This document shows, in pieces, positions 55,010 through 58,755 of a stretch of 64,000 nt of DNA. Each line of letters opens with the position of its first letter. Positions within the stretch are counted from its first letter, which is position 1. Under the pieces are notes generated by a model, which saw only the letters and a program-made list of their open reading frames with translations, had not been told where the DNA came from and made no database searches. This DNA is from Methanocellaceae archaeon UBA148 (lineage in GTDB: Archaea; Halobacteriota; UBA148), in contig DAHG01000025.1 of the NCBI GenBank assembly GCA_002495885.1, forward strand, positions 84,353-148,352, written 5' to 3'. A program made the translations under genes and the position numbers.

Positions 55010-56254
55010 TTAAGTATACCTTGTAATATTATAAAATTTTATAAAGTTAGCAAAATCTCTTACCTTCTCTCTTTTTTTGTATACAATTCTCTCTGCAATA
55101 TCATTGATGGAAGCATTTTTAATAATTCGCTCTGAGAATCTCTCGCGATATAGGTTGTTATAATCGTTACCTTCTTTTATTACAAGATTAGAAAACACTA
55201 GAGGAAAATTTATTCTTTCTTTTTCCATGCTTTCATATAGTTTAAACAGACGGGACATCTCATCAAATACGAGATTATTCTTGAAAGATACACTTTTACC
55301 AGAAATAGCACCTAAGGAAAAGTGCCAGATTTTTGTCGAGGCAACATTTAATCTCCGAGCTGTACCTACTGTCCCCTTCAAGGATTTGTATAACTCATAA
55401 CTAAAAGCCAAAATCGTCTCATTTAGATATTGATACCTATACCCATCATCAAAGATGTTAGATGGTTCACTGAGCAGCTTTCCACCTATTATGTCTTTTG
55501 TGTCCATCCAGAACTCTTTTATCTCATTCAAAGATGATGCATGAGGTATTGCCATAAAAAAGGTCTTTTTTCTCCTGTTAATATTGTAAAAAACCCTGAT
55601 AACAGCAAATAACGAGGCTATTTCGCATAAAGTACACATCTTTAATTCTAAAGACAAATTGGAATAGAAGTTGCTCCAGTTTTTGACTGGAACGAGAAAA
55701 GGATAATTATTAGAGTGAACTTTTGAAGAAGCATTAGTAGAGCCACAAAATGCACAGATTTCTTGTGGCATTAAATTTGGTTTGAATGGCCAGTTATATT
55801 GCGGAGTAGAACAATAAACGCGCCCTTTATCATCAATTTTAAAATTGACTCCTTTTTGCTCCTTTTTCATATTCTCCCACATATGGTATTTCTTATCTGG
55901 AAAATCGCATTTTTCGTACTTGGGTCTCAAATCACCACCACTGAAAAGTGAGCCTACAATGCTTACCAAATTAATTTTACCGACAAATTCAAAGTCTCCT
56001 TTTCCTTTATTATAAATACAAACTTTTTTTTCAGTTGGCTGGATGTATCTTTCATTCTTAATTCTTTCAAATGTTTCTTTCAGAAAGTTTTCTATTTTAT
56101 CATAAGTTGATGCAGAGAGAACATAATTATCTTTATCAAATCCAATCCCTAACTTTTTACGAACTTCTTCTTTATCCTCGATATAATCGCAGAAACTTAT
56201 AATTCCTGCATCAATCCAAGGATCTCCTGTGTAACTAAATTTGACTTCCATCAT
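55010..56254 (-). CDS. cas8: CRISPR-associated Cas8 large subunit (Cas8b/Cas8a1-like, short form)
   Basis: 414 aa. Central zinc-finger-like CAFCGST...CTLC. It sits in the large-subunit position upstream of cas7 and cas5. Confidence 0.55.
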   Translation of the reverse strand: MMEVKFSYTGDPWIDAGIISFCDYIEDKEEVRKKLGIGFDKDNYVLSASTYDKIENFLKETFERIKNERYIQPTEKKVCIYNKGKGDFEFVGKINLVSIVGSLFSGGDLRPKYEKCDFPDKKYHMWENMKKEQKGVNFKIDDKGRVYCSTPQYNWPFKPNLMPQEICAFCGSTNASSKVHSNNYPFLVPVKNWSNFYSNLSLELKMCTLCEIASLFAVIRVFYNINRRKKTFFMAIPHASSLNEIKEFWMDTKDIIGGKLLSEPSNIFDDGYRYQYLNETILAFSYELYKSLKGTVGTARRLNVASTKIWHFSLGAISGKSVSFKNNLVFDEMSRLFKLYESMEKERINFPLVFSNLVIKEGNDYNNLYRERFSERIIKNASINDIAERIVYKKREKVRDFANFIKFYNITRYT

Positions 56255-56274
56255 CTACGACCCCCCTGATCCAT

Positions 56275-56454
56275 TCATATCTCTATCCCTTCTTCTACCG
56301 CCTCTCTCACGATCGTGATCTGTTTCTTCTTTTCTTCGAATTCTTCTGGCGTATAGCAGAGAGCCCCCAGATCAAGAGGGCTGTCCCATAGGAGAATGAG
56401 CTTGTCCATCCTCTCATAGAATTGATCTATTTCTCTATTTCCTCTTTCACCCAT
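56275..56454 (-). pseudogene. C-terminal remnant of a minimal nucleotidyltransferase (MNT) in an alternate frame, overlapping the end of the HEPN gene
   Basis: A 59-codon ORF (MGERGNREIDQFYERMDKLILLWDSPLDLGALCYTPEEFEEKKKQITIVREAVEEGIEI) matches the MNT C-terminal consensus (..DL..LTPEEFE...I..EGI..). It lacks the GS..RG...D.D catalytic N-terminus. Confidence 0.35.
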
Positions 56455-56798
56455 TGGGCTACCTCTTCTGCCATTTTTAGATGCTTTTCTGCGCTGTCTT
56501 TTGTATAGCTCTCGAAAGGGGCTCCTATAGCTGCGTCTGGATAACGCGTGGTAAGGTAATCAGGTGTAAGCTCAGCGATGATATTTTCTGGAGCGCTCAA
56601 TTTGCGTGCAAAGAATACGAGGTTGTGACCCCGGATGCTCTCCTTTTTTGATTTAATGTACAGGGATTTTAAAGCCTTCTCAGCAGCTTGTTGAGAGAAA
56701 AACACTGAGGCATAGTAGTTCTCAGATTTAAGTAAATCAATTGCACTCTTCAGGTCAGCTTTTCCTTGTTCGAGCCAGTAATCAACTTCCTTTCTCAT
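56427..56798 (-). CDS. HEPN-domain protein (COG2250-like toxin component)
   Basis: 123 aa. SIRGHNL (Rx4HN) HEPN motif. Confidence 0.6.
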   Translation of the reverse strand: MRKEVDYWLEQGKADLKSAIDLLKSENYYASVFFSQQAAEKALKSLYIKSKKESIRGHNLVFFARKLSAPENIIAELTPDYLTTRYPDAAIGAPFESYTKDSAEKHLKMAEEVAQWVKEEIEK

Positions 56799-56879
56799 CG
56801 TATCTCACTTTTTGGGGTTATTACCAAAATTCCTACTCAACACTCACATCCATCCAGACATCACAATAAATTGGAACTT

Positions 56880-56945
56880 CAATTACCATCTTCTGCGCCT
56901 CTTCCATCTACGACCTCCAAACATCCAAAACCCATCGCATTTACT
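56880..56945 (-). repeat. Relic duplicate of the cas6 3' end and cas8 5' start junction
   Basis: The reverse complement reads NAMGFGCLEVVDGRGAEDGN-stop (the cas6 glycine-rich C-terminus) and overlaps an ATG reading MEEAQKMVIEVPIYCDVWMD, which resembles the cas8 N-terminus MMEVKFSYTGDPWIDAG. It includes the 26-bp exact repeat 56916-56941, which equals 58040-58065. Confidence 0.55.
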
Positions 56946-57363
56946 TCGACCTGACGTATTCAACCATGAACTTCGCAAACGTGTCAAAATCATCCAGCCT
57001 GTTGTGCAGGAAATCATGGAGAATGCCCGTATCAACCTCTTCATACATGTGGACCAGGACGTTTCTAAAGCCTGCCGCTAATGCGAATTCTTCTGCGAAA
57101 TCCTTTGGCAAAATAGCGTGCTTTCCAAGAATCAATATCACGCTCTTGTAATCCTCGGGCTTTTCAAATCCCTCAACAGAGATGAGGATCTCGCCCATAT
57201 CAAGCGTTGACTCTATCGCCAACTGGAAGTTCCTTTCGATGGCGCTCCTTAGCTCATAATCTCCTTCCAGTTCTTCCCTTGACACGTTTCTTTTTGACGA
57301 TAAAAAATCCATGTACTTTTTCATCGACCGTAACTTGAGGGATATTTTTTCCTTTTCATCCAT
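56941..57363 (-). CDS. hepT: HepT-type HEPN toxin (DUF86)
   Basis: 140 aa. RNVLVHMYEEVD (Rx4HxY) motif. Immediately downstream of the MNT gene. Confidence 0.7.
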   Translation of the reverse strand: MDEKEKISLKLRSMKKYMDFLSSKRNVSREELEGDYELRSAIERNFQLAIESTLDMGEILISVEGFEKPEDYKSVILILGKHAILPKDFAEEFALAAGFRNVLVHMYEEVDTGILHDFLHNRLDDFDTFAKFMVEYVRSK

Positions 57364-57371
57364 AAGCTCAC

Positions 57372-57824
57372 CTAATAGGTGATGCCTTTCTCCATCACCT
57401 TTCTCAGGAATATGTCAGAGGCCATCTTTTCATGATACCTCCTATCCAGATATCTGGATAAAATCCTTTGCTCGACGTCAATTTTTTTCCCCCCATCCCT
57501 CATGAAGAGGGGGGCGTTGCATTTTATTATCTCGTAATTGAGGGAAACGGGCGCATCATTCATTACCACCAAATCCACTTTATCCGTTTTTAATAGCGAG
57601 ACGATCCCGCTGAGGATGTTCAGCATCTCTTCATCCCTCTCCTCTTTGATCAAAGCATCGTTGAGATACACTCCCACGTCTACATCGCTCAACTTCCCCC
57701 TCCCCCCCCGGGCCATAGAGCCGAACAGATACGCAAGTTCAACGCATGAGTGAGCGTTAAACAGCCCTTTAATTTTCTTTAATACAGTCCCCTTTAATAC
57801 AGTCCCCTTAGACACGACAATCAA
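57372..57824 (-). CDS. mntA: MntA-type minimal nucleotidyltransferase antitoxin
   Basis: 150 aa. GSMARGGRGKLSDVDVGV (GSx9-13DxD) nucleotidyltransferase motif. An in-frame 15-nt tandem duplication near the 5' end encodes KGTVLKGTVLK. Confidence 0.75.
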   Translation of the reverse strand: MIVVSKGTVLKGTVLKKIKGLFNAHSCVELAYLFGSMARGGRGKLSDVDVGVYLNDALIKEERDEEMLNILSGIVSLLKTDKVDLVVMNDAPVSLNYEIIKCNAPLFMRDGGKKIDVEQRILSRYLDRRYHEKMASDIFLRKVMEKGITY

Positions 57825-58011
57825 ATCTCCTCTTTTTCAACGCGACCTTAATTTCTCCATTCTTATCTTATCGCAAACCCCATTGATAAGCCCCTTTTCC
57901 CATCATGGATAAGGAAGGCCGCGTTCGTCTGGTTTTAGAGCTTTTCGCTTTTTCAAAAACTCCCCCAGCGTTTTGTCCACTTTTTCACCTCTGCACACCG
58001 CTCTCGGCTCG

Positions 58012-58755
58012 TTAGTCCTTATCGTTTCTCCTCAAGACTTCCAAACATCCAAAACCCATCGCATTCTTTTCTCCTATGCCGGCGTCGTATGCGAAGTTCA
58101 GCAACTCGGGGCTTGCTTCCAGATCAAAAGTAATCAGACTGCATCTTCTGGGCGTGGCATTTTCGCCACTGCCTATCAGAATGCGCTTTCCCTTAAAATA
58201 CCTTACCCTTGTGATGTGAAAGTGAGCTTTTTCCGGAGGGGATCCATGATACTCAGTATAGCGCCCCACCAGGTTTTTATGAACGTTCTCATGAAATTTG
58301 CCGTCTGTCGGGTAGAGGTCCCACTCCTTAAGCTCGCCGCTCTCCTCCCGCAGCGTTTTCACGAATATCGGGCTTATAGCCCTGAAGGTGGAAGGGCTTA
58401 TGAGACTTTCCTGCTCCAGAATTTCGATCTTGTTCACGATGAACTTCTGGTCATAAAGGTGAAAATCTGGCTCCTGCAAAAGGCCTTCGGCAAAACTTCT
58501 CACAAACTCGACATCTGGGGAGGTAAGGATGAAATAAGCATCCTCGAATGCCAGTCCTTTGCGCGATGGTTTGCGATCCGGGAGGATCAGATTTGAAAAA
58601 TTGTAGAACTTGAAGCCCTGATGGGAATGAGATTCATTTGCGAGACGGATGTTTCCGAGCGCCAGCTTCCCATATAACATCGAAGCTAGGGCATATTGGT
58701 AATCAAAAGGAAGCAATCCTTTTGAGACCTTTCTTACGAATATTTTGGCGCGCAT
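58012..58755 (-). CDS. cas6: CRISPR-associated endoribonuclease Cas6
   Basis: 247 aa. C-terminal glycine-rich loop GIGEKNAMGFGCLEV and the Cas6b-type N-terminus. Confidence 0.8.
   Translation of the reverse strand: MRAKIFVRKVSKGLLPFDYQYALASMLYGKLALGNIRLANESHSHQGFKFYNFSNLILPDRKPSRKGLAFEDAYFILTSPDVEFVRSFAEGLLQEPDFHLYDQKFIVNKIEILEQESLISPSTFRAISPIFVKTLREESGELKEWDLYPTDGKFHENVHKNLVGRYTEYHGSPPEKAHFHITRVRYFKGKRILIGSGENATPRRCSLITFDLEASPELLNFAYDAGIGEKNAMGFGCLEVLRRNDKD

Follow-up and report, generated by a model that had tools for sequence, protein, structure and literature searches.

Toxin–antitoxin (TA) genes are known from inside cas loci, and archaeal interference modules are known to be exchanged between conserved adaptation modules. 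A stretch of 64 kb from Methanocellaceae archaeon UBA148 (the whole of it hereafter the window, or W; part of the 161-kb JGI metagenome contig 3300001580, Draft_10000023, our locus L001) preserves, together with its relatives, scars that bear on how both come about at the DNA level. It holds a single type I CRISPR-Cas locus with all relevant genes on the minus strand. Read on that strand, the first half runs from cas6, which contains a segment that we call tail copy A, through a decayed small open reading frame (orf54), mntA and hepT to tail copy B; the second half continues with a 75-bp cas8b relic, a gene for a HEPN-domain protein, a shortened nucleotidyltransferase gene (MNT'), a 5'-deleted tail copy C and the present cas8b to cas3 genes. 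We consider it likely, with a probability of roughly 0.6, that this region is a recombination-built array of TA cassettes wedged into a Methanocellales type I CRISPR-Cas operon where cas6 meets the interference genes. A tail at every cassette border, two module relics and clean empty sites point to the 3' end of cas6 as the physical joint, which would serve both cassette accumulation and module replacement.

The W Cas6 is 86–91% identical to the Cas6 proteins of Methanocellales metagenome-assembled genomes. The relatives compared below are loci labelled L003, L004, L006, L007, L084, L115 and so on (L083 is identical to L084 in its tail-copy array).

Copies of the cas6 3' end border the cassettes

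An earlier note on this DNA, made from the sequence alone, had reported an exact 26-bp repeat within the 3' end of cas6 and again right after hepT. This repeat, TCCAAACATCCAAAACCCATCGCATT, is indeed found at the two positions given there, 58040-58065 and 56916-56941, and nowhere else in the window; 100 shuffles yielded no match to it at up to three mismatches. It lengthens to 30 nt with one mismatch, and, judged from relatives, what is repeated is the final 34 bp of cas6 (AATGCGATGGGTTTTGGATGTKTGGAGGTYGTAG), present as copies A and B (Table 1). The 34-bp tail translates to NAMGFGC(L/V)EVV, the near-invariant C-terminal motif of the W Cas6 family. It contains a GGAGGT ribosome-binding site a few bases 5' of the start codon of the next gene, and also the stop/start overlap for whichever gene comes next. 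As had been proposed, the repeats that bracket the TA cassettes are copied from the 3' end of cas6 and from the junction to the gene behind it; the earlier reading holds in its main lines, though several of its details do not.

Copies A and B are identical over their first 26 nt and differ at 4 of the last 8, where copy A has diverged and copy B has retained the ancestral sequence. In W, the Cas6 C-terminus past ...NAMGFGCLEV has been replaced with a cassette-derived LRRNDKD-stop, and homologous extensions (GNGRNDNNE-stop) are found in L004, L005, L084 and L115. The first bases of copy B overlap the hepT stop codon. Read from 56941 to 56907, copy B is identical at 35 of 35 positions to the junction of L003 (L003 8691-8725), which is uninterrupted: there cas6 ends ...EVVE-stop and the cas8b1 start overlaps the cas6 end. 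A second uninterrupted junction, in L006, runs on into a cas8 gene that resembles the relic behind copy B (68% identity). The ancestral sequence deduced in the earlier note is therefore matched by real empty junctions, and given the L003 identity and the L006 junction, copy B is the displaced original end of cas6. The two translations offered there (...DGRGAEDGN-stop for the alternative Cas6 C-terminus and MEEAQKMVIEVPIYCDVWMDVSVE-stop for the cas8-like start) are correct, as are the gene calls for Cas6, the MntA-type MNT, HepT and HEPN, all of which agree with Pfam.

The case for copy C (ATGGATCAGGGGGGTCGTAG) depends on the relatives. A second recurring motif had been placed at 56263-56280, over the cas8 start; the motif, CTTCCATCATCTACGACC, actually lies at 56245-56262, with its partner at 56901-56915, and the match taken alone is at chance level (14 nt with one mismatch and a 3-nt indel). 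Its 15-mer matches only itself at up to two mismatches, and 9 of 100 shuffles yield a match. Fuzzy tail searches fail to recover copy C, and a tail search of the whole window gave no further copies. There is nevertheless a true third copy at this place. It is counted as such because the orthologous sites in L004, L084, L115 and L007 hold full or less-deleted copies after the same MNT 3' end, of which about 65 conserved nucleotides lie immediately 5' of copy C in W. Given one 15-nt deletion, copy C aligns with the copies L004_C, L084_2.5, L115_C, L084_3 and L007_2.

The layout is shared and old

Tail copies recur in relatives of the locus. In L004 the full copies number three: one within cas6, one behind hepT and one behind an MNT gene of full length. 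L084 has five, in cas6, after hepT, after each of two MNT genes (MNTa and MNTb), and behind a further cassette, orf54-X-Y, where the contig stops; the copy after MNTa is degenerate and is followed by a cas8 relic. L115 has three; behind them only a cas8 relic and one CRISPR repeat remain, the rest being deleted. Two copies surround an orf54-X-Y cassette in L007, though its Cas6 is only 55% identical. The HEPN start codons of L004, L084 and L115 sit exactly at the position of the L003 cas8b1 GTG, overlapping a mini-ORF stop. A survey of the remaining 75 genome-derived cas6 loci showed tail duplications in L004 and L007 only; the feature seems to be confined to Methanocellales-related loci. TA genes directly after cas6 are more widespread: hidden Markov model matches to HEPN/MNT lie within 2 kb downstream of cas6 in five loci, against one TA-family match (HepT) in the 8 kb upstream, and HEPN/MNT genes directly follow cas6 in Methanoperedens and Alkanophaga loci as well.

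Taken literally, the earlier note has the duplications arise in the W lineage, each insertion duplicating its target. Neither part agrees with the comparison. The same A/B/C layout is found in L004, L084 and L115, and mntA-hepT diverges together with cas6: nucleotide identity between W and these three loci is 83–84% for cas6, 83–87% for mntA and 91–93% for hepT, with the same topology. Because the three genes diverge in parallel, the first cassette is older than the lineages of W, L004, L084 and L115; in L006 and in L003, the closest relative of W, the first cassette has been lost or the segment replaced. The right-hand copies do not behave as duplicated targets either. They travel with the MNT 3' end and TGAAG, a unit conserved in six instances, which also stands behind non-MNT cargo (L084 copy 4 and L007 copy 2) with only 20–35 nt of MNT left. 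C-type copies share derived substitutions across genomes, such as the AGGGG common to W_C, L004_C and L084_2.5, and the breakpoint between the cas8 relic and the HEPN cassette is identical in W and L084. The copies are old recombination scars and not fresh target duplications.

Some features cross these lines of descent. A T at tail position 22 occurs only in W_A, W_B and L003_A, the other copies compared having G or being diverged there, and the tail copies are homogenised within a genome by gene conversion. In the HEPN/MNT mosaics of W, L004, L084 and L115, features of the B and C copies and of the MNT 3' end conflict with positional orthology, and this conflict is probably due to gene conversion too.

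The interference module has been replaced at the same joint

The present W effector has the type I-B gene set of Cas8b, Cas7, Cas5b and a Cas3 with fused HD and helicase domains. Its large subunit is split: a 414-aa protein covers positions 2-297 of the Cas8b model and a 114-aa ORF covers positions 308-388. Because the short ORF matches the C-terminal part of the same model, it suggests a stand-alone Cas11-like small subunit. The block from cas8 to cas3 has a GC content of 35.7%, a step of about 11 points at the module: cas6 has 47.2%, the TA region 44.5% and the remainder of the window about 43%.

In blastn comparisons, homology between W and L003 ends at 58036 and at copy B and restarts at 50574; that between W and L004 ends at copy B and at the MNT 3' end and restarts at 50657. 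The span of the present W module has no homology to L003 or L004. Three types of module lie between flanks that are about 85–90% identical: type I-B with a split Cas8b in W, type I-B with Cas8b1 in L003 (and in L007), and an I-A-like module in L004. This is the arrangement expected of interference-module exchange in archaeal type I systems, with related cas6 and adaptation flanks around unrelated modules.

Relics remain at both borders. The cas8-like start after copy B had been read as a former copy of the cas8 now in place; it comes instead from a different Cas8b family, of the L006/L046 type. The relic is 68% identical to residues 2-23 of the L006 Cas8 (E 6.5e-5), and the junction around it is 83% identical to L006 8691-8781 over 94 bp of nucleotide sequence. 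At the other border a cas5 3' relic (ending in LIPILHSREGKNWTVYEVSP-stop) begins 12 nt after the cas3 stop. It matches residues 200-226 of the L004 Cas5 (27 aa, 70% identity, E 5e-7 by tblastn; 82% by blastn) and is the right-hand scar of a module replacement. The cas8 relic and the cas5 relic together record at least two earlier interference modules in W. The cas8 now in place is a replacement and not the first partner of this cas6: a low-GC I-B module has taken the place of earlier ones, and the whole interference module has been replaced at this joint at least twice.

Beyond the cas5 relic, the right flank is conserved (90.7% nucleotide identity to L003 from 50574 on). The Fic and VapBC genes of W (window 48790-50489) lie between cas3 and cas4, on the far border of the exchanged module. 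L003 has them too; L004 lacks them and has about 300 bp in their place.

Contents of the cassettes

In the first cassette mntA lies upstream of hepT with an 8-nt gap, and the two proteins belong to the MNT (PF01909/PF18765) and HepT (PF01934) families that define such a pair. The MntA catalytic motif GSx(n)DxD (FGSMARGG...SDVDVGV) and the HepT Rx4H motif (FRNVLVH) can both be read from the translations. In these respects the pair resembles known MntA-HepT systems, which likewise have an upstream MNT with GS...DxD adjoining a downstream HepT with Rx4H; it differs from them in lying within a cas operon, after a small ORF that has decayed, and in being known here from sequence. The intact pair is predicted to be a working type VII TA system, in which MntA would counter the RNase toxicity of HepT by AMPylation, and to stabilise itself and the adjacent cas6. 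Its more distant relatives (57–70% identity, L085-L100) never adjoin cas6, and MntA-HepT is therefore best regarded as an ordinary TA family recruited here. At window 57777-57809, mntA carries a perfect 15-bp tandem duplication (2.2 copies) that gives an N-terminal KGTVL-KGTVL and is not found in the L004 and L084 orthologues.

The orf54 that precedes this pair has decayed in W, with four indels in the alignment to intact copies in L004, L084 and L007. It is rare, with only seven protein clusters in a database of 5.8 billion proteins, and it heads two cassette types, MntA-HepT and orf54-X-Y. Its sites are window 57825-58011, L004 8781-8945, L084 4411-4551 and 6973-7155, L007 4883-5041 and L111 4655-4819. 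A 76%-identical orf54, followed by a short X-like ORF, also occurs outside any cas locus, adjoining genes for a KTI12-like kinase, PRPP synthase and SecA. In the orf54-X-Y cassette (L084 7156-7852; L007 5046-5763), X is about 125 aa long and belongs to no family, and Y (about 115 aa) weakly matches the HEPN_IX/PDC-M05B defence models; because of this match, all three cassette types may carry HEPN-family toxins. No Pfam or PADLOC family was found for orf54, X, the 47-aa ORF of L084 or the 149-aa and 78-aa ORFs of L046, a Methanoperedens locus.

The second cassette is degenerate. What had been described as an MNT fragment is not a truncation: MNT' has lost about 47 residues by an in-frame internal deletion that takes out the GS...DxD catalytic core, and it is also a chimera, its middle resembling MNT1 of L046 and its last 27 aa resembling MNTa of L084 and the right-end unit of Methanocellales. 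It has no Pfam match. The HEPN gene itself is intact; its product, which accordingly does not stand next to a catalytically competent MNT, is 74% identical to the cassette HEPN of L046 and 37–47% identical to the HEPNs in the same position in L004 and L084 (tblastn). The HEPN/MNT' pair appears to be decaying. Between its cas6 and cas8 (8750-11412), L046 itself has two HEPN-MNT pairs, an extra MNT and duplicated 78- and 149-aa ORFs; its cas8 is of the same family as the W cas8 relic, and it has no cas6-tail copies.

How the array may have formed

To account for these observations, we propose that the tail, kept near-invariant by protein constraint on Cas6, would offer a movable stretch of homology that even distant cas6 genes share. 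Recombination would occur at or beside the tail, either homologously between two tails or with homology at one end only and an illegitimate joint at the other. Such events could add, delete and exchange cassettes and whole effector modules without a dedicated recombinase, and in L001 and L115 no integrase or transposase family was found within about 8–10 kb of cas6. Each tail copy that is kept would supply the gene after it with the native ribosome-binding site and stop/start overlap. Because the tail copies would in this way re-create the translation-initiation context, we propose that the cassettes are expressed as part of the cas operon. If this is right, tail copies should recombine with one another, populations should contain circular or deleted forms, and the cassettes should be co-transcribed with the cas genes.

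Several points weigh against this account of the region. The founding event of each tail duplication has not been observed and is beyond reconstruction. Two independent left boundaries, one where the hepT TAA overlaps AATGC and one where the MNT TGA is followed by AG and AATGCG, agree within 2–3 nt, and on this point a site-specific process therefore fits at least as well as illegitimate recombination. The comparator loci are all metagenome assemblies, in which repeats can break or mis-join contigs, and L084 ends inside a tail copy. The W HEPN has no obvious Rx4-6H motif by eye, and with its partner MNT dead, the HEPN/MNT' pair may be functionless. Finally, a role for the cassettes as a 'guardian of the effector' is not supported, because, as L115 and L116 show, the cassettes did not prevent the loss of the neighbouring CRISPR-Cas genes.

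We think it improbable that the array arose by two successive insertions in the W lineage, each making a very long target-site duplication whose flanking copies are the halves of one event. The cassettes are each flanked by a 34–36-bp segment with sharp ends, the insert beginning after '...GTAG' and the next copy starting from (AG)AATGCG; at variable position 22, each genome's B copy is like its own A copy; and empty sites exist. All of this suits insertion. A duplication private to W, however, does not fit a layout that is common to at least four diverged lineages and has co-diverged with cas6, nor C-type copies that share derived changes across genomes and are linked to an MNT 3' remnant behind other cargo. 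Known transposases make target duplications of 2–15 bp, far shorter than 34 bp. The inserts consist of TA genes and orf54, with no significant inverted repeats at their ends, and there is no transposase, terminal inverted repeat or integrase in or near the cassettes.

A further possibility, also an unlikely one in our view, is that the tail is an att-like site for a recombinase encoded elsewhere, with cassettes that excise as circles carrying one tail and re-integrate as in an integron. The constant boundaries of the repeated segment in independent joints speak for such a process, as do arrays of up to five copies with three cargo types, but the copies decay by 5' deletions of 6 and 15 nt, and cargo replacement leaves ragged MNT remnants of varied length, which is typical of illegitimate recombination. 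The L003 junction does resemble a clean empty site, the orf54-X-Y cassette type is also found behind the cas6 of L007 in spite of 55% identity, and the highly conserved orf54 leads two cassette types. Yet no recombinase gene lies within 8–10 kb of cas6 in L001 or L115 (one acting in trans is possible), and there is no tyrosine or serine recombinase in or beside the element. The tail also lacks an attC-like fold or symmetry (fold z-scores of -1.3 to +1.2 relative to shuffles), and its pattern, as a possible attP, has no match in 2.9 M viral contigs. We are similarly sceptical of the more far-reaching idea that the 34-bp tail is the recombination site of an unrecognised archaeal cassette platform, worked by a site-specific activity encoded in trans, and that whole interference modules are swapped at this docking point too. 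If true, cas6 would anchor an integron-like system whose 3'-end site takes up, releases and rearranges small HEPN-family toxin cassettes (MntA-HepT, HEPN-MNT and orf54-X-Y).

It is very unlikely that the third match, at the cas8 start, is a convergent ribosome-binding site and start codon and that A and B are the only duplication in the window, since, although the match alone is within chance expectation and GGAGGT/GGGGGT is a Shine-Dalgarno sequence possible at any gene start, the MNT 3' end upstream of it aligns to L004, L084 and L115, where a full or 6-nt-deleted tail follows, and the W copy shares the derived AGGGG with the relatives' copies.

Relation to known systems

Integrative elements enter the 3' ends of genes, classically of tRNA genes, and restore the gene with a copy of their own, the displaced end forming a direct repeat. 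The array resembles them in that the W cas6 3' end has been rebuilt from the cassette while the original end stands as copy B at the far side. It differs in that W has no integrase, the target is protein-coding, and the copies are ancient and have multiplied into an array. Like integron arrays, it is a one-directional series of small promoter-less cassettes, often of TA type, with a short recurring site and a fixed anchor gene; unlike them, it has no IntI nearby, and the site that recurs is part of a gene and has no secondary structure of the attC type.

Archaeal type I interference modules are known to be exchanged next to conserved, near-identical adaptation modules (Vestergaard, Garrett & Shah 2014, PMC3973734), and the W, L003 and L004 loci agree with this in that their cas6 and cas4/cas1 flanks, at about 85–90% nucleotide identity, enclose unrelated modules. 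What differs here is that breakpoints are placed at nucleotide level, that the left joint is the cas6 tail, and that cas8 and cas5 relics remain and TA cassettes stand at both borders. TA pairs interspersed in archaeal cas cassettes have been described and a maintenance role proposed for them (Garrett et al. 2015, PMC4390879, section 8). The protein TA pairs inside the present cas operon (MntA-HepT, HEPN-MNT and VapBC), here together with a Fic gene, are comparable. The published cases are mostly vapBC of Sulfolobales without a repeated cas-gene fragment, whereas here each cassette ends in a cas6 3' copy. The array is a new architectural variant of these two phenomena, TA genes in cas loci and module exchange; no description of cas6-tail copies as borders of TA cassettes was found in the literature searched.

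CreTA is a CRISPR-regulated RNA toxin–antitoxin between the cas6 and cas8 genes of the Haloarcula type I-B system (PMC9458426, PMC8501985, PMC12737573). It shares with W the cas6-cas8 gap of a type I-B operon and the idea of an addiction module, but its components are small RNAs with degenerate CRISPR repeats, and it needs Cascade, whereas the TA genes of W code for proteins and nothing repeat-like in the gap rises above chance. CreTA or solitary CRISPR repeats in the W gap were considered as a candidate and rejected; between 47000 and 59300 the 30-nt repeat finds no match better than 18/30, equal to the shuffle maxima of 17–20.

Fate of the cassettes in decayed loci

In L115 (7214-10000), vapBC, cas6, both TA cassettes, three tail copies, the cas8 relic and one CRISPR repeat are kept, while the effector genes, adaptation genes and array have been lost. 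L116 7001-7669, from the same sample, and L117 1378-2046, from a second sample, have a truncated cas6 and no cassettes. These loci show that loss of the CRISPR-Cas system need not take the cassettes with it, and that the cassettes too can disappear. With cas6 and the cassettes all that is left of the CRISPR-Cas genes in L115, the TA pairs would mainly preserve themselves and their immediate neighbour, and not the immune system. A cas6 end and a TA pair also persist in a further decayed cas locus, L078 (8001-8129, Methanoperedens), where a solitary 43-codon cas6 3' fragment lies by a VapBC-like pair and a CRISPR array.

Features of the locus and minor observations

The features of the locus are collected in Table 1.

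Table 1. Features of the CRISPR-Cas locus in window coordinates, in minus-strand order
Feature	Position	Strand	Remarks
cas6	58012..58755	-	247 aa; Pfam Cas6_I-A + Cas_Cas6_C; NCBIfam TIGR01877; 91% aa identity to L003 Cas6
Tail copy A	58032..58065	-	last 34 bp of ancestral cas6 ORF; inside cas6 3' end
Cassette 1 left end	57825..58031	-	new cas6 C-terminal extension + decayed orf54
mntA-type nucleotidyltransferase	57372..57824	-	150 aa; Pfam Polbeta E 2.8e-18, NTP_transf_2 E 7.8e-10
hepT	56941..57363	-	140 aa; Pfam HepT-like E 1.6e-28
Tail copy B	56908..56941	-	intact 34-bp tail, ancestral form; 0 mismatches to consensus tail
cas8b 5' relic	56834..56908	-	24 codons + stop, MEEAQKMVIEVPIYCDVWMDVSVE-stop; earlier Cas8b, L006/L046 type
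HEPN-domain protein	56427..56798	-	123 aa; Pfam HEPN (PF05168) E 2.3e-24
MNT'	56275..56454	-	59 aa; in-frame internal deletion (alignment)
Tail copy C	56255..56274	-	ATGGATCAGGGGGGTCGTAG; 5'-deleted, degenerate; between MNT' stop and cas8 start, abutting both; its mini-ORF ends in ATGA over the cas8 start
Present type I-B interference module	50688..56254	-	cas8b, Cas11-like ORF, cas7, cas5, cas3
cas8b	55010-56254	-	PADLOC Cas8b E 8.7e-30
114-aa Cas8b C-terminal/Cas11-like ORF	54652-54996	-	separate ORF
cas7	53672-54655	-	TIGR02585 E 1.9e-54 (Cst2/DevR type)
cas5	52921-53655	-	Cas5t E 4e-16, below curated cutoff
cas3	50688-52967	-	Cas3_HD + helicase domains
cas5 3' relic	50599..50676	-	...LIPILHSREGKNWTVYEVSP-stop; earlier I-A-like module, L004 type
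Conserved right flank	47286..50598	-	intergenic segment, then vapB, vapC, Fic, cas4, cas1
vapB	50247-50489	-	
vapC	49849-50286	-	
Fic gene	48790-49710	-	SoFic/PDC-S04-like in PADLOC
cas4	48272-48793	-	
cas1	47286-48275	-	
cas2, then CRISPR array (position is of the array)	44183-46885		beyond right flank

As a separate candidate, the tail was considered as an attC-like site or a mimic of the Cas6 substrate and set aside, its RNA and DNA folding being no better than that of shuffles. Counts of bacterial-type promoters and terminators in the region equal those of shuffles; the models are bacterial and the host is archaeal. A 59-bp perfect tandem duplication (2.0 copies) lies at window 11868-11985 and is unrelated to the cas6 tail copies.

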